64,000 bases of DNA. Source: Candidatus Nealsonbacteria bacterium DGGOD1a. Lineage in GTDB: Bacteria; Patescibacteriota; Minisyncoccia; Minisyncoccales; UBA5738. A model generated the notes under the pieces. That model did no database searches and was not told the DNA's origin. It saw only the letters and a program-made list of their open reading frames with translations. The stretch covers positions 753,931 through 817,930 of the forward strand of contig CP092821.1 in assembly GCA_022530585.1 (NCBI GenBank). The letters run 5' to 3'. The translations under genes and the position numbers were made by a program. Shown here piece by piece: positions 14,205 to 40,508 of this stretch; within the stretch, counting starts at the first letter, position 1, and each line of letters opens with the position of its first letter.

Positions 14205-14228
14205 ATTGTTTAAAAATTTAAAATGCAA

Positions 14229-24199: not shown

Positions 24200-24202
24200 C
24201 TC

Positions 24203-24338
24203 AAAATTTAAAATGCAAAAATCAAAGATCAAAATTAAGGAAAATATGTCGTTGAAATTTTCTTCAAAAATTTTAACTCCAAAATTTTTCATTTTCCCGC
24301 CAGAGGCGGATGCGCCTCAGGTGCAGATCTTTCAATTT
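24203..24338. repeat. palindromic intergenic element, family A (AT-rich arms plus the GC double hairpin CCCGCCAGAGGCGG.TGCGCCTCAGG.GCA)
   Basis: Fills the rplO-secY spacer. Siblings at 25559, 26092, 26789 (inverted), 31176 (inverted) and 31653 (inverted). Confidence 0.85.
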
Positions 24339-24773
24339 TTAATTTTTTACGCTGCCTCCCGCTTTCTCTATCTTCTCCTTCGCCGATTTGGAAACTTCGC
24401 AATCCTCGACAATCAAATTCTTGGTAATTTCTCCCGTACCCAGTATCTTTATTTCGGGATATCGACCCGAAACCCGGGGCGCCAAATTCATTTCCACCAA
24501 AGTTCTGGGATTGACTTTCTGGCCGTTTTCAAATTTTGATTCAAGCTCCTTGATATTCACAATTTCCGCCTTAACGCCAACTCTATGGTTTTTATAACCC
24601 CTCAATTTGGGATAACGCTTCAAAACATCCCTGATGATGGGACGAAAATTGCGGCCCGATCTTGCGGTCTGGCCCTTGCCGCCGTGGCCCGAATAAGTGC
24701 CGCGCTTGCCTCCGCGGCCGACGCGCTTCCGGGATTTGACGGCGATTTTAGCGGCTAATTGATGTGTCTGCAT
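24339..24773 (-). CDS. rplO: 50S ribosomal protein L15
   Basis: 144 aa; KSRKRVGRGGKRGTYSGHGGKGQTARSG. Directly follows rpsE with no L30 gene between them. Confidence 0.9.
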   Translation of the reverse strand: MQTHQLAAKIAVKSRKRVGRGGKRGTYSGHGGKGQTARSGRNFRPIIRDVLKRYPKLRGYKNHRVGVKAEIVNIKELESKFENGQKVNPRTLVEMNLAPRVSGRYPEIKILGTGEITKNLIVEDCEVSKSAKEKIEKAGGSVKN

Positions 24774-24856
24774 GATAACCTTGAATAATTTTCAATTTCC
24801 AATTTTCAATTTTCAATTAAAAATCCGGAAATCGAAATTCAGTATAAATTTAAAAA
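24774..24856. repeat. partial family D element (TTTTCAATTT arms) filling the rpsE-rplO spacer
   Basis: AATAATTTTCAATTTCCAATTTTCAATTTTCAATTAAAAATCCGGAAATCGAAATTCAG. At 83 bp the spacer is too short to hide an L30 gene. Confidence 0.6.
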
Positions 24857-25558
24857 TTATTTTTCCGGGACGACTTTTTCTTCAGCAATCGGCGTGATGA
24901 TTTCCGATTTTTTGGAAGTTTGAAGTTTCAGATATTCAAAAGCTTTTAAAGTCGCGCGCGCGTTGTTCAATTTATTTTTAGTCGTACCCAACATTTTGGA
25001 AGAAATGTCTTTTATCCCGGCCAACTGGCAAATCAAGCGCACCACGCCGCCCGCCATCAAACCGCGCCCTTTGCGCTGGGGTTTGATGATAACCTGGGCG
25101 GGACCGACTTTGGCAACCGCTTCGTGGGAAATCGTTCCCTTGACCACCGGCACGATCACCATATTCTTTTTTGACTGAATGGTCGCTTTTTCGACCGCTT
25201 GAGCCACATCCAAACCGGAAGCGACTCCCAAGCCAACTTTGCCCGCCTTATTGCCGCTGATCACAATCGCGCGAAAACGCAACCGCCGCCCTCCGGCGCG
25301 GGTATGGGAAACTCTCGACAAATCAAGCAGTTTGGAATCCATACCGTCGCGATCCTTCTCTTCGCGCTTGCCGTAACCTCCCCGCGATCTGCCGCCGCCG
25401 AAACGGCTGTCGCCTTTGGGCCGCGAAAACCGATTGTCCTGGCCGCGAAAACCGCTCCGGTCGTTCCGGGGCGCAGTTTGCGCCGCCGGCGGCGTTGCCG
25501 GAACAGCCGCAACCTGCGGCGCCGTTCCTTTTTGTATTGTTTGTTGTGTTGCTTCCAT
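24857..25558 (-). CDS. rpsE: 30S ribosomal protein S5 with a ~75-aa low-complexity RG-rich N-terminal extension
   Basis: 233 aa. The conserved S5 core starts near LLDLSRVSHTRAGGRRLRFRAIVISGN. Confidence 0.9.
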   Translation of the reverse strand: MEATQQTIQKGTAPQVAAVPATPPAAQTAPRNDRSGFRGQDNRFSRPKGDSRFGGGRSRGGYGKREEKDRDGMDSKLLDLSRVSHTRAGGRRLRFRAIVISGNKAGKVGLGVASGLDVAQAVEKATIQSKKNMVIVPVVKGTISHEAVAKVGPAQVIIKPQRKGRGLMAGGVVRLICQLAGIKDISSKMLGTTKNKLNNARATLKAFEYLKLQTSKKSEIITPIAEEKVVPEK

Positions 25559-25707
25559 GTTTCAAATTTAAAATGCAAATATCAAAGATCAAAATTAAGG
25601 AAAATATATATCGTTGAAATTTTCTTCAAAAATTTCAACTCCAAAATTTTTAACTTTCCCGCCAGAGGCGGGTGCGCCTCAGGCGCAAATCTTTCAATTT
25701 TGATTTT
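25559..25707. repeat. family A palindromic element (rplR-rpsE spacer)
   Basis: TTTAAAATGCAAATATCAAAGATCAAAATTAAGG...CCCGCCAGAGGCGGGTGCGCCTCAGGCGCAAATC... Confidence 0.85.
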
Positions 25708-26091
25708 TTAGAATTCCAATCCTCCTTTGCGCGCGCCTTCCGCCAAACTCTTCACTCGGCCGTGATAACGGTAAGCTCCCCGATCAAACACAACTTGTTT
25801 GGCTTTCAATTCCTGCGCGGCTTTGGCGATCGACTCGCCAACCGTAAACGCCAACGCGCATTTCTCGGACAACTCGCCTTTCCGACCGGCCGCTTTTACC
25901 GCCTTCAAATCGCTGCTGACCGCCAATGTCACTCCTTTTTGGTCGTCAATCAACTGGGCCAGAATGTGCTTGTTTGACCTGAATACGCACAACCGAGGTT
26001 TTGCCGCCGTACCCGAAATCCGGGCGCGAACGCGGCGATGCCGATCCGTTTTCCGCTGTATTTTATGCTTGATTTTATTTCTGATGCTCAT
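25708..26091 (-). CDS. rplR: 50S ribosomal protein L18
   Basis: Start reset to [14 protein letters not shown]. The [19 protein letters not shown] motif is present. Confidence 0.9.
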
Positions 26092-26242
26092 CGTACCTAA
26101 TTTAAAATGCAAATATCAAAGATCAAAATTAAGGAAAATATATCGTTGAAATTTTCTTCAAAAATTTCAACTCCAAAATTTTTAACTTTCCCGCCAGAGG
26201 CGGATGCGCCTCGGGCGCAGATATTTCAATTTTCAATTATCT
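26092..26242. repeat. family A palindromic element (rplF-rplR spacer)
   Basis: Same consensus as 25559-25707, including CCCGCCAGAGGCGGATGCGCCTCGGGCGCAGAT. Confidence 0.85.
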
Positions 26243-26788
26243 TTATTTCGCGCCGGCGGCCGCTTTCTTGCCAACCTTCTTGCGCACCTTTTCGCCGACA
26301 TAACGGATTCCTTTGCCTTTATAGGGCTCCGGCGGCCGAACCCGGCGAATCTGCGCCGCCACCTTGGAAACCAGTTCTTTGTCGCAACCCGACACGCTGA
26401 TAATATTTTTTTCAACTTTAAAAACAACTCCCGGTTCGGCATTGATCGCGACCGGATGGGAAAATCCCATATTCAAAACCAAACCCTTGCCTTCAATCGC
26501 CGCGCGGTACCCGATTCCCTCAATTTGCAATTGTTTGACGAAATCCTGCGTTACTCCCTGAACCATATTTGCCAAATGCATTCTGACCGTACCCCACATC
26601 GCGCGCGCAACCTTGCTTTCATTGGCGGGATTCACCGTTAAAACCGACGCTTCCTTGGTAATTAAAACCTCCGAACCGAAATCACGCGATAATTGCCCTT
26701 TCGGACCTTTTACCGTAATGTTCGCGCCGTCAATGGCGACATCGACTCCGGAAGGTATGATTATTGGTTTCTTGCCTATTCTGCTCAT
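26243..26788 (-). CDS. rplF: 50S ribosomal protein L6
   Basis: Start reset to MSRIGKKPIIIPSGV; the MRLRRRYFNFKLSK prefix of the track ORF is translated repeat. Confidence 0.9.
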   Translation of the reverse strand: MSRIGKKPIIIPSGVDVAIDGANITVKGPKGQLSRDFGSEVLITKEASVLTVNPANESKVARAMWGTVRMHLANMVQGVTQDFVKQLQIEGIGYRAAIEGKGLVLNMGFSHPVAINAEPGVVFKVEKNIISVSGCDKELVSKVAAQIRRVRPPEPYKGKGIRYVGEKVRKKVGKKAAAGAK

Positions 26789-26942
26789 TTTACTTAATTT
26801 AAAATTGAAATATCTGCGCCTGAGGCGCACCCGCCTCTGGCGGGAAAATGAAAATTTTTGGAATTGAAATTTTCAAAGAAAATTCCAACGACATATATCT
26901 TCCTTGATTTTGATCTTTGATTTTTAAACTTTTAATTTTCTA
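26789..26942. repeat. family A palindromic element, inverted orientation (rpsH-rplF spacer)
   Basis: ATCTGCGCCTGAGGCGCACCCGCCTCTGGCGGG...CTTCCTTGATTTTGATCTTTGATTTTTAAAC is the reverse complement of the 26092 copy. Confidence 0.85.
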
Positions 26943-27347
26943 TTACCAGATCTCGCAAAGCATTTCTCCGCCGATGTTCTGTTTCTTGGCTTCATATTCG
27001 GTCATCAATCCCTTGGAAGTCGTGATTATTCCTATGCCATGGCCCTGTTTCACTCTTTTGATATCGCTCGCGGCCACATAAACCCTCAAACCCGGCTTGG
27101 AAACCTTTTTGTAACCCGAAATTGCCGGAATTTTATTCGTGTATTTCAACGAAATCTCCAGGCAAGGATGCGTTTTGCCGGTCTTTTTTATTTTCCGGCT
27201 CTTTTTTTCCACGCCCGCGACAAGCCCTTTTCTTTCCAGAATTTTGGCAATGGCGTATTTTATGCTCGAATACGGCACCGCCACCAACGGCTTTTCCACC
27301 GCCTGCGCGTTGCGGATCATTGTTAACATATTTGCGACTGTATCCAT
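26943..27347 (-). CDS. rpsH: 30S ribosomal protein S8
   Basis: 134 aa; MDTVANMLTMIRNAQAV. Confidence 0.9.
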   Translation of the reverse strand: MDTVANMLTMIRNAQAVEKPLVAVPYSSIKYAIAKILERKGLVAGVEKKSRKIKKTGKTHPCLEISLKYTNKIPAISGYKKVSKPGLRVYVAASDIKRVKQGHGIGIITTSKGLMTEYEAKKQNIGGEMLCEIW

Positions 27348-27381
27348 GTTTCAAATTTAAAATTTAACTTTTAATTTTTTA

Positions 27382-27567
27382 TTACCAGCTGCTTTTCGTC
27401 ACCCCCGGAATCAAACCTTTGTTGGCCGCCTCGCGGAAACAAATCCGGCATAAACCGAATTTCCTCATATAGCCGTGCTTTCTGCCGCACTTAAAACATC
27501 TGCGCACGACCCTTGATTTGAATTTGGGAGTCCTTTTTGATTTGGCGATTTGTGCTTTTGTTGCCAT
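27382..27567 (-). CDS. rpsN: 30S ribosomal protein S14, zinc-ribbon (type Z) form
   Basis: 61 aa; [23 protein letters not shown] (CxxC...CxxC). Confidence 0.9.
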
Positions 27568-27605
27568 ATTAATAATTCAAAATGTAAAATTTGATTTTTC
27601 AACTT

Positions 27606-28166
27606 TTAACTTTCTCTGATCGGGAATTTAAGAAGTTTGAACAGAGCCGCGCCTTCTTCCTTGGTTTCCGCGGTCGTCACTACCGTAATTTCAAAACTGA
27701 AAATAAAATTTATTTTTTCCGGCGAAATCTCCGGAAACGCGATATGTTCTTTTATGCCAAAGGTCAAATTGCCGGCCTGATCGATCCCTTTCGGGGGAAT
27801 ACCCTGAAAATCGCGCGACCGGGGCAAGGCCACCGTGATCACTCTTTCCAAAAAATCATACATTTTACCGCGCCGCAAAGTCGATTTGGCGCCGATATTC
27901 TGGCCTTCGCGGATCTTAAAACTCGAAATTGAGTTCTTCGCCTGCGTTACCATCGCTTTCTGGCCGCAAATTTGGGTAAGGTCGCGGGCAACCGCTTCCT
28001 GAATTTTTTTCTGTTCATCCTTGGTTTTGCCCGAAACCAAACGGCCAAAACCGCAGTTGACCACAACTTTTTCAATCTTGGGAACCTCCATTTCGTTGCG
28101 ATAGCCGAACTGCTTCATCATTGCCGGCACCGCTTCCTTTTTATATTTTTCCAATAAATAAGCCAT
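27606..28166 (-). CDS. rplE: 50S ribosomal protein L5
   Basis: 186 aa; in the canonical position, with the SFKIREGQNIGAKSTLRR motif. Confidence 0.9.
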   Translation of the reverse strand: MAYLLEKYKKEAVPAMMKQFGYRNEMEVPKIEKVVVNCGFGRLVSGKTKDEQKKIQEAVARDLTQICGQKAMVTQAKNSISSFKIREGQNIGAKSTLRRGKMYDFLERVITVALPRSRDFQGIPPKGIDQAGNLTFGIKEHIAFPEISPEKINFIFSFEITVVTTAETKEEGAALFKLLKFPIRES

Positions 28167-28323
28167 AAACTCTAATAAAATCCGAAATACGAATTACGAA
28201 ATCCGAAACAAATTTAAATTTTCAAAATTATAATGTTCAAAACGGATAATTAGATTCGTTTTGAAATTTGAAAATTCGTGCTTGTTTCGAATTTCGAATT
28301 TCGATATTCGATATTTGCATCTT
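28167..28323. repeat. palindromic intergenic element, family B (CGAAATCCGAAAC / GTTTCGAATTTCG arms)
   Basis: ACGAAATCCGAAACAAATTTAAATTTTCAAAATTATAATGTTCAAAACGG...GAAAATTCGTGCTTGTTTCGAATTTCGA. Siblings at 32097, 34202, 36800 and 39707. Confidence 0.85.
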
Positions 28324-28647
28324 CTATATCTCGGCCAGGCACTTTCTGCAAATCCTGACCGTCTTTTTGCCGCCATTCTCGCCGCCTTCGATCACTTTAT
28401 ATCCGACTCTCGCCGCCTTGCCGCATTTGGGACAAATAAGCTTCACATTGGACGCGTCGATGGATTTTGGCAAGGAAACGATCTGGCCCTTTTGCCCCTG
28501 TTGTCTCGGTTTTTGGCTTTTTTTGGCGATATTCACGCCCTCCACCACGATCCGCCCGTTCTTGGGCAACGCCGTCAAAACCTTTCCGGTCTTGGCGCGG
28601 TCTTTCCCGGATATCACCAACACATTGTCGCCTTTAATTATCTTCAT
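28324..28647 (-). CDS. rplX: 50S ribosomal protein L24
   Basis: 107 aa; MKIIKGDNVLVISGKDRAKTGKV (KOW motif). The C-terminal CPKCGK...CRKC zinc-ribbon-like tail is noteworthy. Confidence 0.9.
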   Translation of the reverse strand: MKIIKGDNVLVISGKDRAKTGKVLTALPKNGRIVVEGVNIAKKSQKPRQQGQKGQIVSLPKSIDASNVKLICPKCGKAARVGYKVIEGGENGGKKTVRICRKCLAEI

Positions 28648-28737
28648 ATATAAACTTTAAGCGTAAGGCGAAAAGTGTAAAGTAAGAATTCGAACCCGTA
28701 TTTTTACTTTGCACTTTGCGCTTTTAACTTTGCACTT
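28648..28737. repeat. palindromic intergenic element, family C (AAGCGTAAGG / CTTTGCGCTT arms)
   Basis: AAGCGTAAGGCGAAAAGTGTAAAGTAAGAATTCGAACCCGTATTTTTACTTTGCACTTTGCGCTTTTAAC; sibling at 32984-33062. Confidence 0.75.
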
Positions 28738-29109
28738 TTATACCAGTTCTTCGGCCAACGCCGCCACTTTATCGTAACCCTTCTCTTTTAATTCCTTGGC
28801 AACCGGTCCAAAAATCCTTCCGCCTTTGGGTTCCATTGTCTTGCCTTCCAAAACCACGCAGGCGTTGTCGTCGAAGCGCACATATGTGCCGTCTTGGCGT
28901 TTGTACTCTTTTTTCTGCCGAATGATCACCACCCGCACTTTTTCGTGTTTCTTAACCATCTTGCGCGGATCGGCTTCTTTGACCGCGGCCATTACCACAT
29001 CGCCCACCGCCGCGTACCGCCGGCGCGTACCGCCGGACACATGAAAACACTGGACGATCCTTGCCCCTGTGTTATCCGCGACCTTAAGCATTGTTCGAAG
29101 TTGAATCAT
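28738..29109 (-). CDS. rplN: 50S ribosomal protein L14
   Basis: Start reset to MIQLRTMLKVADNTGAR. Confidence 0.9.
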   Translation of the reverse strand: MIQLRTMLKVADNTGARIVQCFHVSGGTRRRYAAVGDVVMAAVKEADPRKMVKKHEKVRVVIIRQKKEYKRQDGTYVRFDDNACVVLEGKTMEPKGGRIFGPVAKELKEKGYDKVAALAEELV

Positions 29110-29196
29110 ATTAATATCGCCTCTTTTCGGCGTCTGAATAATCAAAGTTTAAAACGGAGTAATTGTACTATAAAAATTAAAAAAATGCAACCCTGC

Positions 29197-29469
29197 CTAC
29201 TCGGCGGTTTTAACTTCTTTTTCTTCCGCCTTGGCCGCGGCGATCTTTCCGGCCACTTTCCAGCGCTTATCGGCCGACATCGGACGGCATTCCTCGATCA
29301 CCACCGCGTCGCCAATCTTGTATTCGCCGGTCTCGCAATGAGCTTTATATTTCTTGCTCACCTTATACCGTTTGTGGTATTTCGGATGTTCCTTTAAACG
29401 CTCGACCAAAACCACCACGGTTTTAGCCATTTTGTCGGACACGACTTTTCCTGTTAATTGATGCTTCAT
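29197..29469 (-). CDS. rpsQ: 30S ribosomal protein S17
   Basis: 90 aa; [20 protein letters not shown]. Confidence 0.9.
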
Positions 29470-29577
29470 ATCTAATTCAAAATTTAAATATCAAAATGTA
29501 AAATTGTTGTGTTGAAATTTTCCTTGAAAATTTTAACTATATATCTTCCTTGATTTTGATCTTTGATTTTTTAACTT
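29470..29577. repeat. family A variant lacking the GC double hairpin (rpmC-rpsQ spacer)
   Basis: AATTCAAAATTTAAATATCAAAATGTAAAATTGTTGTGTTGAAATT...CTTCCTTGATTTTGATCTTTGATTTTTTAAC; nearly the same as 30396-30512. Confidence 0.75.
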
Positions 29578-29769
29578 TTAATTTTCTATGGTTTCGTTTT
29601 GCAAAGTTTTTATTCGCGCGACATCCAGCTTTATCTGCCGGACTTCTTTCAAATTCTTCACTTTGCCCGCCGACAAATCAAATCTCAACTCGGCCAGCTT
29701 GGCAAGTTTTTCATCCAGTATCACGGCTAATTCTTGTTTATTTTTTTGGCGCAATTCGGAAGTTTTCAT
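29578..29769 (-). CDS. rpmC: 50S ribosomal protein L29
   Basis: Start reset to MKTSELRQKNKQELAVILDEKLAKLAELRF. The upstream 38 codons of the track ORF lie in a palindrome. Confidence 0.85.
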   Translation of the reverse strand: MKTSELRQKNKQELAVILDEKLAKLAELRFDLSAGKVKNLKEVRQIKLDVARIKTLQNETIEN

Positions 29770-29972
29770 TTTATGTGATTTCAATATGCTTAGGGCTCTT
29801 CCACAAATAAGTTCCTTAGATTGGTTATCAGATTTGTCCCAGATTTCGTTTTTTCCGACCGAGCAAGATTTGAGATGTAGCAATGGCTACATTGAAAATC
29901 TTGCGACCGAAGAAAAACGAAAGATGGGGCGAATATGGAAGCAAGATGGGGAAGTTATTTGTGGAAAAGACC
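29770..29972. repeat. single-copy ~200-nt long imperfect palindrome filling the rplP-rpmC spacer
   Basis: On the coding strand the outer arms CTTTTCCACAAATAACTTCC / GGAACTTATTTGTGGAAGAG pair. The inner arms TTTCGTTTTTCTTCGGTCGCAAGATTTTCAATGTAGC / GCTACATCTCAAATCTTGCTCGGTCGGAAAAAACGAAA pair around a CATT loop. Confidence 0.8.
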
Positions 29973-30395
29973 TTAGAATTCTTTTTTGACAAATCTGGTT
30001 TTGATCGGCAATTTATCGCCGGCTTTCTCAAGCGCCTCGCGGGCGATATCTTCTTTAACGCCATCCAGCTCGAACATCAAGCGTCCGGGTTTCACCACAA
30101 AAGCGTAATGGTCGACTCCTCCCTTGCCGCCGCCCAAAGGCACTTCTTCGCCTTTGCTGGTTACCGGCTTGTCCGGGAATATTCTGATCCAAAGCTTGCC
30201 GCCCTTCTTCAAATATCTTAAAATCGCCCGGCGGCCCGCCTCGATCTGGCGCGAAGAAATCCATTTTTCCTCAAGCGCTTTCAAACCGAAACTGCCGTAA
30301 TTCAACTCGGCTCCGCGGTACGAAAGACCGATACCGCGGCGGCGGCCCTTCTGCCATTTGCGATGCTTAACTTTTTTCGGCATTAAAATCGACAT
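29973..30395 (-). CDS. rplP: 50S ribosomal protein L16
   Basis: 140 aa; [17 protein letters not shown]. Confidence 0.9.
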
Positions 30396-30512
30396 ACTGA
30401 TAATTCAAAATTTAAATATCAAAATGCAAGATTGTTGTGTTGAAATTGTTTACAATTTCAACGATATATATTTTCCTTAATTTTGATCTTTGATTTTTTA
30501 ACTTTTAATTTT
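30396..30512. repeat. family A variant lacking the GC double hairpin (rpsC-rplP spacer)
   Basis: AATTCAAAATTTAAATATCAAAATGCAAGATTGTTGTGTTGAAATTG...TTTTCCTTAATTTTGATCTTTGATTTTTTAAC. Confidence 0.75.
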
Positions 30513-31175
30513 TTACAGCTTTTCCCCTTTGTACACCCACACTTTTATTCCGATAACGCCGTAGGTGCAATGCGCTTCGGTCAGCTCGTAATCAATATCG
30601 GCCCTAATGGTTTGCCGCGGCAAACGCCCCTTGCCAAGCCACGCCGTGCGCGCGATTTCAACACCGTTCAACCTTCCCGCCACCTGAACCCTCACTCCCT
30701 GCACATCCCGCGAACCCATAGCCTTCTCTATCGATTGTTTCAGAACCTTCAAATAAGGCATCCGCTTCTCGATTTGCGCCGCGATTGATTGGCCGATATA
30801 AGCCGCCGACGCCCAAGGATTCGTGATTTCTCTGATTTCAACGCGCAAATCCGCGCCGTTCTTTTTTGTTTTGCCGGTTTTCGCGCCCTTGAAAATCAAT
30901 TTCTCCAATTTCTTCCGCAACTCCTCGATCCCTTGCCCCTGGCGGCCGATAATAAGACCCGGGCGCACGCATGAAATTATCACATTCATTTTGCCGGGAA
31001 ACCGGTCGATCTCGACCTCGGAAATGCCGATGCCCGCGAGGCGCTTGTGAAGGAATTGGCGTATCAGAAAATCTTCTTCCAACATCGCGGGAAATTTCTT
31101 TTCGTAATAACCGCGGGAATACCATCCCGAGCTATCTTTTATTCTGAATCCTTTTGGGTGAACCTTGTGAGCCAT
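30513..31175 (-). CDS. rpsC: 30S ribosomal protein S3
   Basis: Start reset to MAHKVHPKGFRIK; the MRLRRRYLNFKFAI prefix of the track ORF is translated repeat. Confidence 0.9.
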   Translation of the reverse strand: MAHKVHPKGFRIKDSSGWYSRGYYEKKFPAMLEEDFLIRQFLHKRLAGIGISEVEIDRFPGKMNVIISCVRPGLIIGRQGQGIEELRKKLEKLIFKGAKTGKTKKNGADLRVEIREITNPWASAAYIGQSIAAQIEKRMPYLKVLKQSIEKAMGSRDVQGVRVQVAGRLNGVEIARTAWLGKGRLPRQTIRADIDYELTEAHCTYGVIGIKVWVYKGEKL

Positions 31176-31283
31176 AATAGCAAATTTAAAATTTAAATAT
31201 CTGCGCCTGAGGCGCACCCGCCTCTGGCGGGAAAATAAAAATTATCGATTTAAAATTTTTCTTTGAAAAATTTCGATATATAA
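31176..31283. repeat. family A palindromic element, inverted orientation (rplV-rpsC spacer)
   Basis: ATCTGCGCCTGAGGCGCACCCGCCTCTGGCGGGAAAATAAAAATT...TTGATTTTGATTTTTGATTTTTCAAC. Confidence 0.85.
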
Positions 31284-31652
31284 TTATTCTTTGATTTTGA
31301 TTTTTGATTTTTCAACTTTTAACTTTTCTTTAAGTATCATCGTGATATGGGCCGTTCTTTTTTGCAGTTTGTCGGCGCGGCCGCGCGATCTGGGAAAAAC
31401 TCTTTCCGACATCGGGCCGTCGTTGACCATCAATCGATCAATATAAAAATTATTCGGATCCAATTTATAAGTATTCTTCGCCGTCGCCATTGCCGATTGC
31501 AAAAGCTTCAATATCGGCAAACTGGCCTTCTTGGCGGTAAATCTCAAAATCGCTTCGGCCTCGGTCGTCGATTTATATCTCACCAGATCCGCCACCATCC
31601 TCACTTTCCGGGCGGTGATCTTTAAATTTCGTAATTTTACCGTGATTGCCAT
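31284..31652 (-). CDS. rplV: 50S ribosomal protein L22
   Basis: 122 aa; LKITARKVRMVADLVRYKSTTEAEAILRF. Confidence 0.9.
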   Translation of the reverse strand: MAITVKLRNLKITARKVRMVADLVRYKSTTEAEAILRFTAKKASLPILKLLQSAMATAKNTYKLDPNNFYIDRLMVNDGPMSERVFPRSRGRADKLQKRTAHITMILKEKLKVEKSKIKIKE

Positions 31653-31775
31653 ATTAATAAATCAAAATTTAAATATCTGCGCCTGAGGCGCACCCGCCTC
31701 TGGCGGGAAAATGAAAATTTTAACGATATATTATTCCTTGATTTTGATTTTTCAGCTTTTAGCTTCGCGCTTTCT
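31653..31775. repeat. family A palindromic element, inverted orientation (rpsS-rplV spacer)
   Basis: ATCTGCGCCTGAGGCGCACCCGCCTCTGGCGGGAAAATGAAAATTTTAACGATATATT... Confidence 0.85.
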
Positions 31776-32096: not shown

Positions 32097-32209
32097 ATTT
32101 TTTCTAAATTTGAATATCGAATATCGAAATTCGAAATATGAAATTCAGTTTGATTATTTGAAAATTCGGGTTTGTTTCGGATTTCGTGCTTCGGATTTCG
32201 TGCTTTTAT
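32097..32209. repeat. family B palindromic element (rplB-rpsS spacer)
   Basis: GAATATCGAATATCGAAATTCGAAATATG...GAAAATTCGGGTTTGTTTCGGATTTCGTGCTTCGGATTTCG. Confidence 0.75.
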
Positions 32210-32983
32210 TTATTTCGCTCTTCGTTTAACAATTAACTTGCTGGTCCACTTTCTCGGATTGCGGGTCCGGACGCCCATTGCCGGTTTGCCCCACGGAGTC
32301 TTGGGATGCCTCAATCCGATACCCGTCCGTCCCTCGCCGCCGCCATGCGGATGGTCGCAGGGATTCATCACCGAACCGCGCACCGTCGGCCGCCATCCTT
32401 TCCTTCTCATCGCGCCCGCGGTATGATAATTCTCGAATCGGTATTCCGGATGCGAAGCCTTGCCGATCGACGCGTAACATTCCGCCGGCACTTTCCTCAC
32501 TTCTTTGGAAGGCATCTGCAATTGGACGAATTGGCCTTCGGTGGCCATCACCCGCGCCGCCGATCCGGCGGACCTTACCATCTTCCCGCCTTTTCCGGGC
32601 TGTAATTCGATATTAAAAACTTCGGTGCCGACCGGAATATTTTTCAACATTACGCGATTGCCGGTTTTAATCGCCGCGGTTTCGCCGCAAATGATGTCTG
32701 CCCCCGCCGCCAATTCGTCGGCCGCCAAAATATAGCGCCGGTCCCCGTCATCGTATTTCACCAATGCCAGATACGCGGTGCGGTTCGGATCGTATTCCAT
32801 GGCGATCACTTTTCCCGCGATTCCGAATTTTTCCTGTCCAAAATCAACCACGCGGTACATCCTTTTGACGCCGCTGCCGCGATGGCGAACCGTGATCCGA
32901 CCGGAAAAATTCCTGCCGGCCTTGCTTTTTAACGGCCTCAGCAAATGCTTTTCCGGCCTTTTTTTGGATAATTGGGTTTTCAT
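32210..32983 (-). CDS. rplB: 50S ribosomal protein L2
   Basis: 257 aa; GRITVRHRGSGVKRMYR ... MNPCDHPHGGGEGRT. Confidence 0.9.
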   Translation of the reverse strand: MKTQLSKKRPEKHLLRPLKSKAGRNFSGRITVRHRGSGVKRMYRVVDFGQEKFGIAGKVIAMEYDPNRTAYLALVKYDDGDRRYILAADELAAGADIICGETAAIKTGNRVMLKNIPVGTEVFNIELQPGKGGKMVRSAGSAARVMATEGQFVQLQMPSKEVRKVPAECYASIGKASHPEYRFENYHTAGAMRRKGWRPTVRGSVMNPCDHPHGGGEGRTGIGLRHPKTPWGKPAMGVRTRNPRKWTSKLIVKRRAK

Positions 32984-33062
32984 ATATAAACTTTAAGCGT
33001 AAAGGAAGAATTCGAATTCGTATTTTCACTTCGCGCTTTTCGCTTTTAGCTTCGCGCTTTTT
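32984..33062. repeat. family C palindromic element (rplW-rplB spacer)
   Basis: AAGCGTAAAGGAAGAATTCGAATTCGTATTTTCACTTCGCGCTTTTCGCTTTTAGCTTCGCGC. Confidence 0.7.
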
Positions 33063-33479
33063 CTATTTGGGCAAAACTTCAATGCTCTGGCCTTCCTTGA
33101 TTTTCACGATCGCCTTGCGATAGCCCGGTTCCGTGACAATTCCGCGGCCGCGCCGGCGCCGCTTGCCGGGGACATTCACCACATTCACGCCCGTGACTTC
33201 CACTCCGTAATAATTCCCAACCGCGCGGGCAACTTCTTTTTTGTTCGCGCCGCTTGCCACCTTGAAAACATACTGGTTGATTTTCACAAGCTTTGAAGCC
33301 TTTTCGGTCACATGCGCGTGTTCCAAAACCCGCATTGCCTGTCCGCTGACCTTGCGAACGGTTTTAACGCTCTCGCCCGTTTTGGCGGCGACGGCTTTTT
33401 TTTCTTTTTTTACCGCCGCGCCTTTTTTAACGCCGGAATATTTGCCGCCCTCTTTTTTGAATATGTCGGTGATTGCCAT
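33063..33479 (-). CDS. rplW: 50S ribosomal protein L23 with a ~40-aa Lys/Ala-rich N-terminal extension
   Basis: 138 aa. The core is HVTEKASKLVKINQYVFKVASGANKKEVARAV. Confidence 0.85.
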   Translation of the reverse strand: MAITDIFKKEGGKYSGVKKGAAVKKEKKAVAAKTGESVKTVRKVSGQAMRVLEHAHVTEKASKLVKINQYVFKVASGANKKEVARAVGNYYGVEVTGVNVVNVPGKRRRRGRGIVTEPGYRKAIVKIKEGQSIEVLPK

Positions 33480-33481
33480 AA

Positions 33482-34201
33482 CTATTTCTTTTTATTCACG
33501 GGTTTCTTCACGGTTTTGACGATCTTTACCGCTTCCTTTTTCTTGCTTTCGGCCGGCTTTTTGGCCGCGATCGCGCCAATATCGCTGATCGCTCCCACCG
33601 GCATCAACAAACATTTGGTATTCAACAAATCAAGAACATTGAGCTTGGCCGCTTCAATCGTTTTCACATCGGCAAGATTGCGGCTCGCCAAAATTTCGTT
33701 TTTGGCCGCCGCGGGCAATGCGATCATTATCTTTCCCTTTTTGAAATTATCGTTGACTTTTCTGACGCTTTCCAAAACTCGGAGCATTTCTTTGGTTTTG
33801 GGCTGGCTGACCGCCAAACTTTCCAAAAAGAACAGCGAATTGGCCGAAACTTTGGCCGTCAATATCATCGCCAAGGCTTTTCGTCTCATTTTCTTGTTGA
33901 TTTTTCCGCCGTAAATCTTTTCATTGGTCGGGCCAAAAACCACTCCTCCATGGCGCCATTGCGGCGATCTGATCGATCCCTGGCGCGCGCGGCCGGTACC
34001 CTTCTGCCTCCACGGTTTCTTGCCGCCGCCGGATACTTGGCCCCTGCCTTTCGTATGCGCCGTTGACTGCCGCCGGTTATTCATCTGGGTCGTCGCCACC
34101 TGATAAACCAAATCCCGGTTCATCTTGACTTCGAACAAATCTTTCGGAAGTTCAATCGTCCCCGCGGCTTCCCCTTTTTGATTGTATGTCGTAACTTGCA
34201 T
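33482..34201 (-). CDS. rplD: 50S ribosomal protein L4 with a Lys-rich C-terminal tail
   Basis: Start reset to MQVTTYNQKGEAAGTIELP; the upstream 44 codons of the track ORF lie in a family B repeat. Confidence 0.9.
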   Translation of the reverse strand: MQVTTYNQKGEAAGTIELPKDLFEVKMNRDLVYQVATTQMNNRRQSTAHTKGRGQVSGGGKKPWRQKGTGRARQGSIRSPQWRHGGVVFGPTNEKIYGGKINKKMRRKALAMILTAKVSANSLFFLESLAVSQPKTKEMLRVLESVRKVNDNFKKGKIMIALPAAAKNEILASRNLADVKTIEAAKLNVLDLLNTKCLLMPVGAISDIGAIAAKKPAESKKKEAVKIVKTVKKPVNKKK

Positions 34202-34354
34202 AAAACTTAATAATTTCGAATATCGAATGTTCGAAATCCGAAACAATTTTCTAATTTTCAAAATTCGAATGTTTAAAACTGGAATTCCGTTTCGGTCATT
34301 CGATATTTGAAAATTCGAATTTGTTTCGAACATTCGAATTTCGTGCTTCGGATT
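34202..34354. repeat. family B palindromic element (rplC-rplD spacer)
   Basis: TTCGAATATCGAATGTTCGAAATCCGAAACAATTTTC...GAAAATTCGAATTTGTTTCGAACATTCGAATTTCGTGCTTCGG. Confidence 0.8.
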
Positions 34355-34951
34355 TTATCCGCGTATTTCCAATAATGTTCCTTTTCTTCCCGGAACCGCG
34401 CCCAAAATTGCCATCAAATTCTTTTCCGCGTCAACCATCACGATTTTCAAATTTTTCACGGTAACCCGGTCAACGCCCATCCGTCCCGGCATCTTCTTCC
34501 CTTTGCGGATCGCCGCGCCGCCCATTCCCACCGAACCGACATTGCGCAATTCGTGCTTGGTACCGTGCGTGCAGGAAAGTCTTCCTTTAAAACCATGCTT
34601 TTTAACCGCCCCCTGGAAACCCTTGCCTTTGGAAAGGCCGGAAACTTTAATGACATCTCCCTCTTTGAAACTGTCCACCTTGACCGAATCGCCGGCTTTC
34701 AAATCCAAACCGCCGTCAACGCCCCGATATTCTTTAATGGTCCGAAACGGCTTTCCCGCCTGGCTCTTTTTGACGCGCTTTGAATCAATATCGCCAAATC
34801 CCAACTGCACCGCCGCGTAACCGTCGTTTTCCTTGGTCTTTAATTGCGTCACCCGGCAAGGTCCGGCCTCGATCATCGTAACCGGCATCCTTTTGCCGCC
34901 GGCGGCGAAGATCTCCGTCATTCCGATTTTTTTTCCTAAAATGAATTTCAT
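34355..34951 (-). CDS. rplC: 50S ribosomal protein L3
   Basis: 198 aa; MKFILGKKIGMTEIF ... KGKGFQGAVKKHGF. Confidence 0.9.
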   Translation of the reverse strand: MKFILGKKIGMTEIFAAGGKRMPVTMIEAGPCRVTQLKTKENDGYAAVQLGFGDIDSKRVKKSQAGKPFRTIKEYRGVDGGLDLKAGDSVKVDSFKEGDVIKVSGLSKGKGFQGAVKKHGFKGRLSCTHGTKHELRNVGSVGMGGAAIRKGKKMPGRMGVDRVTVKNLKIVMVDAEKNLMAILGAVPGRKGTLLEIRG

Positions 34952-35055
34952 GTTGGCAGTTTAACAATGGAAAACCGGGCATAGCCCGGTCCCAACTATG
35001 GCTATTTCTTTAATATTTGATTTCAATATACCGAATCCAAAAGCGATTATTACGA

Positions 35056-35406
35056 TTACATTTTAATCTCAATATCCACGCCCGCCGGCAAAGTGAGATT
35101 CCGAAGCGAATCAATGACCTTGGGCGTCGGATTCACGATGTCCAGCAAACGCTTGTGCACCCGAATCTCGAATTGCTCCCGCGCGTCTTTATGGACAAAT
35201 GTCGACCGGTTCACGGTGTATTTGTGAATCTCGATCGGAAGCGGTATCGGCCCAAGAATCTCGGCGCCATAACGATTTATCGTCTCAATGATCTGCTTGG
35301 TGCAATTATCAACCACCTTGTGATCGTATGCCCGAAGCTTAATCCTCAATTTGGGCCTGGAAGTTTCCTTGATCTCTTTATTTTTCTTTGTAATCGTTGA
35401 TGCCAT
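35056..35406 (-). CDS. rpsJ: 30S ribosomal protein S10
   Basis: 116 aa; LRIKLRAYDHKVVDNCTKQIIE ... RSTFVHKDAREQFE. Confidence 0.9.
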   Translation of the reverse strand: MASTITKKNKEIKETSRPKLRIKLRAYDHKVVDNCTKQIIETINRYGAEILGPIPLPIEIHKYTVNRSTFVHKDAREQFEIRVHKRLLDIVNPTPKVIDSLRNLTLPAGVDIEIKM

Positions 35407-35497
35407 TTGTCTGCAATTCCATTAAATTTGCTTTTGGAATTTCCTTTTAAAAGTTTTGTTAATCGCGAGATTAATCATACGCGATACCGGCTTTGGC

Positions 35498-36697
35498 TTA
35501 CTTTACTATCTTGGTTACCACGCCCGCACCCACGGTTTTGCCGCCTTCGCGGATGGCGAATTTGGATTTCTCTTCCAGCGCGATCGGATTGATCAATTTC
35601 ACATTGAAAGTGACCGTATCGCCGGGCATCACCATTTCAACTCCGGGATTCAAAGTTACCTCGCCGGTCACATCGCAGGTGCGAACATAAAACTGTGGCT
35701 TGTAACCGCTGAAGAACGGAGTGTGGCGGCCGCCTTCTTCCTTGGTCAAAATGTAAACTTCGGAAGCGAATTCGGTGTGGGGAGTGATCGAGCCGGTCTT
35801 GGCAAGCACCTGGCCGCGTTCAACATCTTCCTTTTTCAATCCGCGCAACAAAATACCCACATTGTCGCCCGCCCGGCCCTCATCCAAAATTTTCTGGAAC
35901 ATTTCGATCGAAACCGCCGTGCTCTTGGAGGTGGGTTTGATGCCAACCAATTCAATTTCTTCGTTGGCATGCACGATGCCGCGTTCGATTCTGCCCGTTG
36001 CCACGGTTCCGCGGCCGGCGATCGAAAACACATCTTCCACGGCCATCAGGAAAGGCTTGTCGGTGTCGCGCACCGGCTCGGGGATATACTCGTCAACTTT
36101 ATTCATTAAATCAAGGATCGGTTTCACCGCCGGATCATCAACGGTTTTCGCGTCAAGCGCTTTCAGCGCGGACCCGCGCACGAAAGGAATTTCATCTCCG
36201 GGGAAATGGTATTTCTTCAATAATTCACGCACTTCGGATTCCACCAAATCAATCATTTCCGGATCATCCACCATATCGCATTTGTTCAGAAACACCACCA
36301 AGGACGGCAAACCGACTTGGTGCGCCAGCAAAATGTGCTCGCGGGTTTGCGGCATCGCGCCGTCATTGGCGGAAACCACCAAAATACCGCCATCCATCTG
36401 CGCCGCGCCGGTGATCATATTTTTGATGTAATCGGCATGTCCCGGGCAATCAATGTGGGCATAGTGTCTTTTGTCGGTCTCATACTCCAAATGCGCGATG
36501 TTAATCGTCACGCCGCGCTGTTTCTCTTCGGGAGCCGAATCGATCTGATCGATTGACTTCATCGCCACCTTGTTTCCTTTCAAGTTTAAGGAATGCAAAA
36601 TCGCCGCGCTCAAAGTGGTCTTGCCATGGTCGACATGGCCGATGGTGCCAATGTTCAAATGAGATTTGCCTCTGACGAATTTTTCTTTTTCTGCCAT
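35498..36697 (-). CDS. tuf: elongation factor Tu
   Basis: 399 aa; [27 protein letters not shown]. Confidence 0.95.
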
Positions 36698-36799
36698 AGG
36701 TTTTTTGTTATAAATATAGTTAAAAACTTAAATTAAAAAATACAAAAAATCGCAACAATCTTATTTTACTCATTTTCGGGAAAAAGTCAAATCCCTTGC

Positions 36800-36948
36800 G
36801 AAAAATCCGAAACCCGAAGCACGAAATCCGAAACAAATCCGAATTTTCAAAATTATAATGCTCAAAACGGGCATTAAATTCGTTTTGAAAATTTAAAAAT
36901 TCGTGCTTGTTTCGAATTTCGATATTCGATATTCGAAATTGTTTTAAT
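36800..36948. repeat. family B palindromic element within the 251-bp fusA-tuf spacer
   Basis: ACGAAATCCGAAACAAATCCGAATTTTCAAAATTATAATGCTCAAAACGGG...GTGCTTGTTTCGAATTTCGATATTCGATATTCGAAAT. Confidence 0.85.
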
Positions 36949-39057
36949 TTACTTCCTCTTCCCCGAAATAACTTCTTGGGCGACATTGCCGGGAACTTCT
37001 TCGTAATGGTCGAATTCCATCGTGAATGTTCCCCGGCCCTGCGTCAGCGAACGCAGATTCGTGGCATAACCGAACATTTCCGCCAGCGGCACTTTCACAT
37101 TGATGATTTTGCTTTCCATCTGGTCGTCGGAATTTTCAATCTTGCCGCGGCGCGACGACAGATCGCCGATCACATCTCCGAAAAATTCTTCGGGAATCGT
37201 CACCTCCAATTTCATTATCGGTTCAAGCAATATCGGATTGGCTTTTCTGGCCGCGGTTTGCAACGCCATCGAGCCGGCAATCTTAAACGCCATTTCCGAC
37301 GAATCAACTTCGTGGAACGAACCGTCGTATAGCGTCGCTTTCATATCCACCATCGGATAACCGGCCACCACGCCCTTGGCCATGGCTTCCTCAATGCCTT
37401 TCTCGGTCGGTTTGATATATTCTTTGGGAATGACGCCGCCTTTGATCTCGTCCGCGAATTCAAATCCTTCGCCGCGTTCCTTGGGCTCGAGCCTGATCCA
37501 TACATCGCCGTACTGGCCGCGGCCGCCGGATTGCTTGACGAATTTACCCTGCGCTTCGGAATTGGTTTTGATGGTTTCTTTGTATGCCACCTGCGGGCGT
37601 CCCACATTGGCTTCAACTTTAAATTCGCGGCGCATCCGATCAACCAAAATATCCAGATGCAATTCGCCCATGCCGCGGATAATAATCTCGTTTGTTTCCT
37701 GGTCGGTTTCCACGCGGAAAGTCGGATCCTCATCGGACAGCTTCTTCAACGCGAAACCCATCTTCTCCTGATCGGCTTTGGTTTTGGGCTCGATGCGAAT
37801 CGAAATAACCGGCTCCGGAAAAGTAATCTTTTCAAGAATGATCGGATGGTTTTCGTCGGAAAGGGTGTGCCCGGTGGAAGTGTTTTTCAAGCCAACGGTC
37901 GCGGCAATATCGCCGGCATACACATCATCGATCTCGGTACGGTCATTGGCATACATCCGCAACAAACGGCCGATCCTTTCCTTCTCTCCCGTGGTCGTGT
38001 TTAAAACATAGGACCCTTTTTTCAAATAACCCGAATAAACCCGGAAGAATGTCAGCGTCCCGACATACGGATCCGCCGCCACTTTAAACGCCAGCGCCGT
38101 GAACGGTTCATCGTCGGAAGGTCCGCGCAAAACTTCGGCCTCGCCCTTCACCTCCATACCTTTCACCGGCGGCAAATCCAAAGGACTGGGCAAGTAATGG
38201 CAAACCGCGTCAAGCACCGGCTGAACGCCGGTGTTTTTCAGGGACGAACCATAAAATACCGGAATGATCGTTCCCTTCATCGTGGCCGCGCGCAAAACCC
38301 GGCGCAGATCGTTCAAAGCGATTTCTTCCCCGGCCAGATAGCTGTTCATTAAAGTTTCATCTTCCGCCACGATCTTTTCAATCAATTTGGCGCGCCATTC
38401 ATTGGCCATTTCCACCATATCCGCCGGAATTTCTTCCTCAACCACATCTTGGCCGTTATCGCCGTTAAAACGCACCGCTTTCATCGTCAGCAGATCAACC
38501 ACGCCGCTCAACGCGCTTTCTTCTCCGATCGGAATATTCGCGGCCACGGCGTTTTTGTTCAATTTTTTCCAAATGGACTGCAAACTGCGTTCAAAGCTGG
38601 CGCCTGTCCTATCCATCTTATTGATGAAACAGATGCGCGGCACGGAATATTTGTCTGCCTGGCGCCATACGGTCTCGGATTGCGGCTGGACACCCGCGAC
38701 GCCGTCAAACACCACCACCGCGCCGTCCAGAACGCGCAAAGCGCGCTGCACTTCGGCGGTAAAGTCGATGTGTCCGGGGGTATCGATAATATTAAAACGG
38801 TGTTCGTTGGTTTTCTGCTTGCTTAAATATTCGCCCGGAGACCAGAAACAGGTCGTTGCCGCCGAAGTGATGGTAATGCCGCGCTCGCGCTCCTGCGCCA
38901 TCCAGTCCATAATGGCCGCGCCTTCGTGCACCTCGCCGATCTTGTGCGACAAGCCGGTGTAAAACAAAATCCGCTCGGATGTGGTGGTTTTGCCGGCATC
39001 GATATGAGCGATTACGCCGAAATTGCGATATTTTTCAATTGGAGCAAGTCTTGCCAT
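36949..39057 (-). CDS. fusA: elongation factor G
   Basis: Start reset to [25 protein letters not shown] (the upstream 8 codons of the track ORF lie in a repeat). About 702 aa. Confidence 0.95.
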
Positions 39058-39190
39058 AAAAATACAAAATGTAAAAATCAAAAATCAAAATGACAATGCA
39101 AAATTTAAAAATGCCGCGATATGGACATTTTACAACTCTGCGTTGTCATTTTCCATTTTGATTTTTCAATTTTAAATTTAATAATATTCC
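39058..39190. repeat. family E palindromic element (rpsG-fusA spacer)
   Basis: AAAATGTAAAAATCAAAAATCAAAATGACAATGCAAAATTTAAAAATGCCGCGATATGGACATTTTACAAC...GTTGTCATTTTCCATTTTGATTTTTCAATTTT. Confidence 0.8.
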
Positions 39191-39238
39191 GCAAAAAACG
39201 GAAAGGCGATGTCCGCCTTTCCGTTTTTTCTTTTAAAA

Positions 39239-39706
39239 TTAAAACTTGAAATGTGCGAACGCTCGGTTTGCCTCGGCCATACGGTGCGTATCCTCTTTTT
39301 TCTTGATGGCCACGCCCGTGTTATTGGCCGCGCCGATCAGCTCCTCGGCCAATTTGATCTTCATCGGCTGGCCCTTCTTTTTGCGCGCCGATTCAAGCAG
39401 CCAGCGAACCGCCAGCGCCTGTCCCCTTTCCTTGACCACCGGTTTGGGCACTTGATAGGTCGCGCCGCCGACGCGCTGGGATTTAACTTCCAAAAGCGGG
39501 CGGGCGTTTTCCAAAGCCAAATTGAAAACTTCCAGCGGATCTTTCTGGGTTTTCTCTTTCATTATATCCAAAGCGCCGTAAACGATCTTCTTGGCCGCGT
39601 TCTTCTTGCCCTTTTTCATTATGTGATTAATGATCTGGGAAATTAAAACGCTGTTATAAATCGCGTCCGGAGCAATTTCTTTTTTTGTATTTTTCTTGCC
39701 GCTCAT
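39239..39706 (-). CDS. rpsG: 30S ribosomal protein S7
   Basis: 155 aa; [23 protein letters not shown] ... AHFKF. Confidence 0.9.
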
Positions 39707-39859
39707 AATAAGCTAAATTCGAAACACGAAGCTCGAAATCCGAAACAAATCCGAATGTTCAAAATTATAATGTTCAAAACGGGTATTGAATTCGTTTCGA
39801 AATTTGAAAATTCGTGCTTGTTTCGAGTTTCGATATTCGAGATTCGAAATTAGAAATTT
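39707..39859. repeat. family B palindromic element (rpsL-rpsG spacer)
   Basis: CTCGAAATCCGAAACAAATCCGAATGTTCAAAATTATAATGTTCAAAACGGG...GTGCTTGTTTCGAGTTTCGATATTCGAGATTCGAAAT. Confidence 0.85.
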
Positions 39860-40404: not shown

Positions 40405-40508
40405 CAAGGGTCTATCCCTCGTTAATGCGAGGGTTAGACCCTTGAAATTCACCCCGAATGCTTTCTTGCCAGGGTCTAACCCCTGCGATTACACAGGGGA
40501 TAGACCCT
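40405..40508. repeat. two tandem family H hairpins (GGGTCTA.CCC / GGG.TAGACCC)
   Basis: 40405-40444 is CAAGGGTCTATCCCTCG-TTAAT-GCGAGGGTTAGACCCTTG. 40471-40508 is AGGGTCTAACCCCTGCGATTACACAGGGGATAGACCCT, which matches the reverse complement of 8746-8783. Confidence 0.85.

Follow-up and report, generated by a model that had tools for sequence, protein, structure and literature searches.

No bacterial gene array is better conserved or more tightly packed than the str-S10-spc array of ribosomal protein genes, and the genomes of the candidate phyla radiation (CPR) are regarded as streamlined. What are the long spacers that separate the genes of this array in Candidatus Nealsonbacteria bacterium DGGOD1a (Minisyncoccales), an uncultured bacterium with a small genome, and how could they have arisen? 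We addressed this question in a stretch of 64,000 nucleotides of contig CP092821.1 (positions 753,931 to 817,930; hereafter, the window), the minus strand of which encodes rpsL-rpsG-fusA-tuf-rpsJ-rplC-rplD-rplW-rplB-rpsS-rplV-rpsC-rplP-rpmC-rpsQ-rplN-rplX-rplE-rpsN-rpsH-rplF-rplR-rpsE-rplO-secY-adk-map. With the starts placed by homology, the junction census covered the 24 junctions from rpsL to secY (each written below with a slash), and all 24 spacer lengths given in a preliminary description of this DNA were re-derived identically from the gene boundaries on the minus strand (e.g., 153 nt for rpsL/rpsG, 181 nt for rpsG/fusA, 251 nt for fusA/tuf, 203 nt for rplP/rpmC, 154 nt for rpsH/rplF and 139 nt for rplO/secY). 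The spacer is at least 79 nt long at 21 of these junctions; rplD/rplW, with 2 nt, is a tight one. Altogether, the spacers amount to 2,868 nt, or about 18% of the cluster, compared with 361-490 nt in outgroup CPR genomes. Long imperfect palindromes are present at 18 of the 24 junctions and short remnants at two more. These are likely to be foldback repeats that move or recombine at the DNA level, akin to miniature inverted-repeat transposable elements (MITEs) or repetitive extragenic palindromes (REPs), and that colonize the intercistronic gaps, replace one another and decay there, being co-transcribed and tolerated.

For comparison, the same cluster was fetched from ten clade members, in which the mean identity of the ribosomal proteins to those of the window ranges from 98% down to 62%, and from six outgroups (49-59%). 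A key relative, GCA_049302415.1 (hereafter L087), shows 91.5-98.4% (about 96%) DNA identity to the window within genes. Upstream in-frame extensions of open reading frames (ORFs) exist, e.g., for rplD, rpsC and rplF, as might be expected if the starts had been mis-called and the spacers were coding; errors of assembly at the repeats are the other form that an artifact could take. The probability of either is negligible, and we consider this explanation refuted. The similarity between the window and L087 begins and ends precisely at the chosen ATG and stop codons, and independent gene calls of JGI on the metagenomic contig Ga0310376_1000018 (JGI 3300028916), which includes the window, yield the same proteins, so the corrected start codons of the preliminary description are right and coding spacers can be rejected. 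Independent assemblies show the same spacers, and the gene order is canonical in all of them, which disposes of an assembly artifact.

Families and architecture of the palindromic repeats

The repeats fall into several families. Between copies of a family at different junctions, the identity is 84-96% over 107-150 nt, and both orientations are represented. Each of the long spacers is predicted to form a single extended hairpin (z-scores of -4.5 to -10.4 relative to dinucleotide shuffles), and the outermost helix starts at a median of about 3.5 nt past the stop codon and ends at a median of about 6 nt ahead of the next ATG. Tandem Repeats Finder resolved the arms of almost every family into arrays of 3-7 degenerate words of 7 nt (or 14 nt), such as AAAGATC, TTTCGAA and AAAGCGC. 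The elements are 80-183 nt long, lack a conserved ORF and are present in 2-8 copies per family in 64 kb, as is characteristic of MITEs in size and copy number, and their whole-arm inverted repeats are 71-97% complementary, a counterpart of the terminal inverted repeats of MITEs.

Family A is represented at eight junctions (all in-operon coordinates refer to the minus strand). The copies at rpsS/rplV (31653-31775; orthologous A copies in L087 and in another relative, L089, are devoid of the GC-rich insert described below), rplV/rpsC (31176-31283; truncated at the 5' end and 84% identical over 150 nt to the rpsH/rplF copy; L087 has 44 nt here) and rpsH/rplF (26789-26942; z -5.1) carry a GC double hairpin. 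The same holds for three inverted copies, those at rplF/rplR (26092-26242; 95.6% identical over 137 nt to the rplR/rpsE copy; an unrelated family in L087), rplR/rpsE (25559-25707; present in L089) and rplO/secY (24200-24338; in the L087 orthologue, precisely the 30-nt GC insert is missing). The two remaining copies, at rpsC/rplP (30396-30512; nhmmer E-value 2e-23; an unrelated family in L087) and rpmC/rpsQ (29470-29577; E-value 3e-24; orthologous copies in L087, L089 and L093), are free of the insert. Family A remnants of 38 nt at rplE/rpsN (27568-27605) and 34 nt at rpsN/rpsH (27348-27381) consist of A-type outer arms and match both ends of L087 elements of 111 nt and 122 nt, respectively.

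Family B occupies five junctions, namely rpsL/rpsG, which it fills completely (39707-39859, 153 nt; 91% identical over 138 nt to the fusA/tuf copy; dG -48.8, z -6.6; an unrelated family in L087), the 5' part of fusA/tuf (36802-36944; E-value 1e-44), rplC/rplD (34202-34354; a diverged copy, E-value 3e-36, z -6.6; an inverted A-type element in L087), rplB/rpsS (32097-32209; a B-derived element 95% identical over 44 nt to the fusA/tuf copy, inverted, E-value 9e-13; A-type in L087) and rplX/rplE (28167-28323; A-type in L087). Family C is found at rplW/rplB (32984-33062; 83% identical to the rplN/rplX copy, E-value 1e-18; an unrelated family in L087) and at rplN/rplX (28648-28737; E-value 5e-25; orthologous in L087, L089 and L007, with a spacer of 4-15 nt in L090-L095). 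Single in-operon copies represent family D at rpsG/fusA (39060-39179; 54-nt arms, 78% complementary, with an orthologous copy in L087; 84-86% identical to the copies at 60338-60461 and 61780-61900), family E, with TGAAAAT words, at rpsE/rplO (24774-24856; 90-93% matches at 6197-6238, 55595-55644 and 56049-56091; 24 nt in L087) and a unique 183-nt MITE at rplP/rpmC.

Outside the operon, elements were found at all nine sites listed in the preliminary description (approximately 5163-5271, 6221-6343, 9180-9258, 14212-14316, 14715-14830, 55595-55668, 56049-56180, 60338-60461 and 61781-61898). They belong solely to family D (between iscS and rrf2 at 14212-14316, with others at 14715-14830, 60338-60461 and 61781-61898), family E (between ftsX and ftsE at 6221-6343, with others at 55595-55668 and 56049-56180 flanking rpmB) and a further family, F, with GATTTAA words (5163-5271 and 9180-9258). 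The statement that the operon families also occur elsewhere holds for D and E and, over the window and 20 kb of extra flank, fails for A, B and C. The cluster stands out by element density, with 18 of 24 junctions occupied compared with roughly 10 elements elsewhere in 68 kb.

The GC double hairpin is a 30-nt module, TGCGCCTGAGGCGCA followed by CCCGCCTCTGGCGGG, with six matches in the window (24296-24325, 25658-25687, 26190-26219, 26815-26844, 31202-31231 and 31678-31707) against 0.00 expected. The preliminary description counted eight such hairpins in family A; there are indeed eight A-type elements, of which six have the hairpin and two do not. Aligning 26 A-type copies (window, L087, L089 and L007) places it at one fixed point, TTTT/GAT, in each of the six copies that have it; the orthologous copies of L087 and L089, like every other locus fetched, lack the module, which is thus seen in this species only. 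At rpsH/rplF, about 20 nt beside the insert have switched to the sequence of another copy, which points to patch transfer between paralogous elements. AT-rich foldbacks of two further relatives also contain nested GC hairpins, a pair, TCCCGCTCCGCGGGA and TCCCGCCCCGGCGGGA, at rpsE/rplO in L091 and a palindrome, CCCCGTTAGAAAC..., at rpsH/rplF in L095, so that such nesting recurs.

The 183-nt MITE (29790-29972; dG -67.2, z -9.6), present in L001-L004 only, lies directly after the rplP stop codon and accounts for the difference between the 203-nt rplP/rpmC spacer of the window and the 20-nt spacer of L087. Its 19-nt terminal inverted repeats, GGTCTTTTCCACAAATAAC and GGCTCTTCCACAAATAAG, are flanked by a duplicated (C)TAA, and the empty site in L087, taa-GCATATTGAAATCACATAAA-atg, is identical to positions 29770-29789 of the window. 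Judging by these sequences, the terminal repeats and the duplicated target are clear evidence of transposition. The gene of an ISL3 transposase is located about 14 kb past the left end of the window, and the ends of that element begin with GGCTCTTC, as does one terminal repeat of the MITE; the similarity stops after 8-11 nt. A 133-aa ORF reported by public gene callers (29588-29989, plus strand) runs antisense to rpmC and through the MITE; it is almost certainly spurious because it has no Pfam match and is absent where the MITE is absent.

Turnover of the spacers and the conserved minority

Long spacers are a trait of one clade of Minisyncoccales (Paceibacteria). Junctions of at least 60 nt number 21 of 24 in the window, 19 in L087, 16 in L089, 13 in L090, 17 in L091, 11 in L092, 19 in L007, 10 in L093, 9 in L094 and 12 in L095, compared with 2-6 in the outgroups, in which most spacers measure 1-10 nt. 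Within the clade, neither the length nor the content of the junctions is conserved, and every repeat-bearing junction is reduced to 1-29 nt in at least one member. The sister genomes, to which the preliminary description had looked for evidence on mobility, thus display polymorphisms of presence, absence and replacement rather than conserved spacers.

Between the window and L087, unrelated families occupy eight junctions; at fusA/tuf, for instance, an unrelated 'TTCCAAT' family replaces the B element in L087 while the downstream 100 nt or so remain conserved. There are two clean cases of presence versus absence, rplP/rpmC and rplR/rpsE. In the latter, 149 nt in the window correspond to 17 nt in L087 made up of the two outermost ends of the element, as if a deletion had occurred across the base of the hairpin; the short rplE/rpsN and rpsN/rpsH spacers of the window are the outer arms of elements that are full in L087 and hence represent deletions of the center. 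Replacement is also observed over far shorter distances. Two strains 99.7% identical to the window, L002 and L004, have an A-type element at rplX/rplE where the window has B. Single-nucleotide polymorphisms (SNPs) cluster at the edges of the swap, where four fall in the final 10 nt of rplX and another two within 55 nt of rplE, compared with a background of about one SNP per 500 nt elsewhere, and the same strains differ from the window by an insertion or deletion of 14 nt (2x7) in the rplE/rpsN spacer, the next one after the swap. More generally, in the comparison of the window with L087, the last 45 nt of the upstream gene are more diverged beside swapped spacers (Mann-Whitney p=0.0098). According to the family-by-junction matrix, several genomes have families A, C, D, E and G in common but at different junctions; family D is shared by L007 and L095 despite deep divergence (62% protein identity to the window). 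The changes seen comprise gain, loss, deletion of the center, slippage by 7-nt units and invasion by the 30-nt GC double hairpin.

The 3' end of rpsE (24857-24900) also varies: the C-terminus of S5 in the window is unlike that in L087, both in sequence and in length (702 versus 708 nt). It adjoins the junction that holds family E in the window and lacks it in L087.

The assertion of the preliminary description that most spacers are filled by repeats holds for the 18 junctions with long palindromes and not for tuf/rpsJ, rpsJ/rplC, rpsQ/rplN and the 3' part, about 100 nt, of fusA/tuf. These spacers yield no repeat matches, are conserved in L087 and L007 and are, by their sequence features, conserved promoter or leader regions rather than repeats. 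The fusA/tuf remainder contains a putative sigma-70-type promoter of tuf, TTGACT-N16-TAAAAT (36763-36790), the best promoter match on the gene strand (10/12), conserved in both relatives. The tuf/rpsJ leader (35407-35497) shows no excess folding (z -0.8), and its 3' 60 nt are identical in L087. The rpsJ/rplC spacer (34952-35055), 97% identical in L087, has a GC hairpin, CCGGGCTATGCCCGGTTTT, and could represent a leader or attenuator that separates S10 from L3; within the clade it keeps this GC hairpin followed by a T-run, and all CPR genomes in the comparison, including the outgroups, have a long spacer here (66-421 nt). In the rpsQ/rplN spacer (29110-29196), which differs from L087 at one position in 87 nt, the motif TTGCAT-N17-TACAAT, also conserved in L007, is likely to be the promoter of the spc operon. 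A terminator-like GC hairpin with a T-run, AAAAAACGGAAAGGCGG...CCTTTCCGTTTTTT (39193-39229), follows directly after rpsG, is not a repeat and is conserved in L087. The clear promoters in a consensus scan were these conserved, non-repeat ones; an internal promoter in every element was considered and discarded, given that the scan returned just weak 9/12 matches in AT-rich sequence. Transcription of the elements, as supposed previously, would thus not proceed on one polycistronic mRNA: there are conserved promoters before rpsL, tuf and rplN, and these internal promoters, together with the terminator-like hairpin after rpsG, indicate that the cluster comprises several transcription units.

Could the long spacers as a whole be conserved autoregulatory leaders or attenuators, like the S10, spc and str leaders of Escherichia coli? 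For the minority just described, which is non-repetitive, conserved in L087 and L007 and endowed with promoter-like or hairpin motifs, this explanation holds. As a general one, it is very improbable: one and the same sequence is found at many junctions, no Rfam family reaches its gathering threshold in the spacers, and the sister genomes show no conservation of those filled by repeats, a comparison that refutes the explanation for the repeat-bearing junctions. With the Rfam 15 covariance models, ribosomal protein leaders included, only three tRNAs attain the gathering score in the window, and the matches at E-values up to 1 are sub-threshold hairpin noise resembling miRNA precursors.

Origin and maintenance of the repeats

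The preliminary description had offered two main options, selfish MITE- or REP-like invaders and elements recruited as RNase III sites, mRNA stabilizers or uncouplers of translation. The polymorphisms of presence, absence and replacement, along with the terminal repeats and duplicated target of one element, support the former. Under this interpretation, the AT-rich families would spread mainly locally along the operon, either by means of a trans-acting enzyme, not found here, or through gene-conversion-like copying between similar AT-rich spacer ends; the latter route fits the observations because the swapped tracts include some coding bases from the flanks and are devoid of target duplications. 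The elements would be co-transcribed, and several properties could make them tolerable. No Shine-Dalgarno motifs were found before these genes in the clade or in the outgroups compared, and AU-rich insertions therefore spare the ribosome-binding site; in a lineage that makes no use of such motifs, the region ahead of the ATG would stay AU-rich, and the folded palindrome would keep the stop codon and the next start within a few nucleotides of the base of the hairpin. A ribosome terminating upstream would then melt the base of the stem and expose the next start, preserving coupling. Since no junction needs an element, the repeats appear to be selfish or neutral rather than required.

Several observations weigh against this interpretation. 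Target-site duplications, which the preliminary description had named as a mark to look for, are seen as (C)TAA at the 183-nt element and nowhere in the AT-rich families, the filled and empty sites of which show just short repeats that belong to the arms. Across the window and its flank of 20 kb (84 kb in total), no transposase able to move these families was detected; the recombinases and transposases identified are limited to a serine recombinase and an ISL3 transposase, located together in a mobile island. Furthermore, the 15 copies of families A, B and C identified by nhmmer all lie inside the 16-kb cluster, with no copy detected by this search in the remaining 48 kb of the window or in the 20 kb of extra flank, which raises the possibility of a function in ribosomal protein mRNA. 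Finally, the central hairpin of family A keeps its pairing through a double change from G-C to A-U (9 versus 6 sequences), suggesting that some force maintains palindromy. A scan of metagenomes for the A arm, in a collection that evidently lacks the source sample, returned five loci, three of them in ribosomal protein operons of relatives and one, also in a relative, between the gene of a 315-aa protein and a 471-aa ORF read without family search as a putative glycyl-tRNA synthetase; hence, the link of family A to ribosomal genes is not strict.

Alternatively, selection could maintain the co-transcribed hairpins as RNase III sites, as 3' stabilizers of the individual cistrons or as devices to preserve or adjust translational coupling in the absence of Shine-Dalgarno sites. 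The predicted stems of 40-60 bp would be long enough for RNase III, the base of the hairpin adjoins both the stop and the start codon in a lineage devoid of Shine-Dalgarno sites, the ribosomal protein cluster is a hotspot with strong enrichment (18 of 24 junctions), a lost element is often replaced by another, and the central hairpin of family A contains a compensatory pair. Domestication of this sort nevertheless seems unlikely to us, and the corresponding option of the preliminary description finds no support: every repeat-bearing junction is short in some relative, both orientations occur, sequence-unrelated families occupy the same junction, and outgroups that similarly lack Shine-Dalgarno sites manage with spacers of 1-10 nt. 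Moreover, the mismatches in the stems are strand-symmetric, with 182 G.U versus 203 A.C in the sense RNA of 81 palindromic spacers (p=0.31), and thus show none of the G.U bias that would betray selection on the RNA. A more elaborate possibility, which we consider quite improbable, is a self-renewing intercistronic system peculiar to a lineage without Shine-Dalgarno sites, in which hairpin- or microhomology-templated gene conversion, independent of a transposase, would be aimed at the stop-to-start gaps of highly transcribed operons. By clamping the stop codon to the start codon, the hairpin would allow the coupling of termination and reinitiation to survive an insertion of 100-180 nt, and the arms of 7-nt words would provide the binding register of a host factor specific for single strands or hairpins.

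The swapping of whole spacers between near-identical strains brings to mind yet another mechanism, integron-style exchange of single genes or spacers at folded recombination sites. Integron attC sites lie between co-directional genes as imperfect palindromes of 57-141 nt that retain structure more than sequence, and the elements described here, imperfect palindromes of 60-150 nt in the same setting, are likewise more conserved in structure than in sequence. However, the element ends have no GTTRRRY/RYYYAAC core sites, no integron integrase is encoded in the 84 kb, and the gene order is invariant in all relatives, the intervening genes being essential ribosomal protein genes rather than cassettes. 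With neither core motifs nor an integrase domain, attC-like sites were rejected, and there is very little probability that they explain the data.

Taking mobile or recombining foldback repeats as the most plausible reading, some 2.9 kb of hairpin repeats (18% of the cluster) have been added to str-S10-spc and turn over between genomes at the species boundary, which implies that even this operon can absorb selfish palindromes. The locus could serve as a natural experiment in how the translation of neighboring genes is coordinated, without Shine-Dalgarno sites, across long structured spacers, and the hypervariable spacers of a universal locus could be used as strain markers. The repeats also call for caution with gene callers, which here extended ORFs into repeats and called spurious antisense ORFs.

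Other features of the locus and comparison with known systems

A second GC-rich palindromic family in the window, GGGTCTAnCCC...GGGnTAGACCC, comprises six hairpins (8747-8782, 14944-15004, 16887-16947, 40408-40441, 40472-40507 and 40576-40609), three of which are arranged in tandem within 389 nt upstream of rpsL. These hairpins, with 12 half-sites against 0.01 expected, are often flanked by the recurring motif TTGCGAAAC...TTGAATTTAA. Also upstream of rpsL, between this gene and that of an M50 peptidase, are two giant genes (40660-54707) for proteins of 3,185 and 1,501 aa, the first containing a Peptidase_S74 domain (one 4,650-aa protein in the JGI calls); in L087, L090, L091, L092 and L095, the M50 gene is located directly upstream of rpsL. 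The L30 gene, rpmD, is absent between rpsE and rplO (24857-25558 and 24339-24773, respectively) and in every relative fetched, as is typical of the CPR. The rpmB gene (L28, 65 aa) is a real gene at 55781-55978 on the plus strand, with family E foldbacks on both sides, and the longer antisense ORF at 55675-55974 is spurious. An ORF of about 61 aa with two CxxC motifs (DUF5679; 61442-61627, minus strand) adjoins a copy of family D. The putative mobile island is situated by tRNA-Gln and spans positions 66-5087 of the window and 11810-20650 of L102. Its part in the window includes a RadC-Dam fusion, a serine recombinase and an HNH protein flanked by a direct repeat of about 115 nt (3314-3483 and 4810-4930); the part beyond encodes an AlwI-type restriction-modification pair, the ISL3 transposase, a NucS-like protein, a terminase-like protein and a ParB-methylase.

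Among the known repeats, the Correia or NEMIS elements of Neisseria are non-coding palindromes of 100-155 bp with inverted-repeat ends that are often located in operons, are co-transcribed, form long hairpins and vary in presence between strains; in the Correia elements, terminal repeats of 26 bp come with a TA duplication and an IHF site. The present elements resemble them as non-coding palindromes in operons with long hairpins and variation in presence. They differ in having no sequence similarity, other ends, no TA duplication in the AT-rich families and a CPR host, and further in that the whole arm is a tandem array of 7-nt words and that many unrelated families coexist and replace one another at one site. 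The ERIC or IRU sequences of enterobacteria are imperfect palindromes of about 127 bp in transcribed intergenic regions of operons, in either orientation; again, the sequence is different, there are several families rather than one, the arms consist of tandem words, and the density per operon is far higher here. The MIRUs of Mycobacterium tuberculosis fill intercistronic gaps of operons from stop to start but are direct tandem units with short ORFs in one orientation; the elements described here share the occupancy of the gap and differ by being palindromic. Outside bacteria, the foldback (FB) transposons of Drosophila and other eukaryotes have long inverted arms of short degenerate tandem subrepeats, on a kilobase scale and sometimes carrying genes. 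The subrepeat arrays of the arms and the change of size by gain or loss of units are alike, with no evolutionary link implied.

The likeness to REP, BIME and REPIN sequences (PMC3116915, PMC2817692) consists in the intergenic location, the presumed transcription, the hairpin formation and the variation of the site between strains, and the two short GC palindromes of the 30-nt double hairpin are reminiscent of a doublet. The main families, however, are AT-rich and 80-160 nt long instead of GC-rich and 20-40 nt long, the GC doublet is found solely within A-type elements, and its modules start with CCCGCC or TGCGCC and have no GTAG head; no RAYT (Y1 transposase) gene was detected in the 84 kb read. 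With regard to a phage origin, viral contigs scanned with the GC module, the B core and the MITE terminal repeat contained no copies. A full-text search of the literature returned no description of palindromic or MITE-like repeats in CPR bacteria (Patescibacteria) or in ribosomal protein operons. The present analysis describes such repeat families for CPR bacteria, and what sets these families apart from the known systems is the combination of arms built of tandem 7-nt words, saturation of the most conserved bacterial operon and replacement of one family by another at fixed sites.

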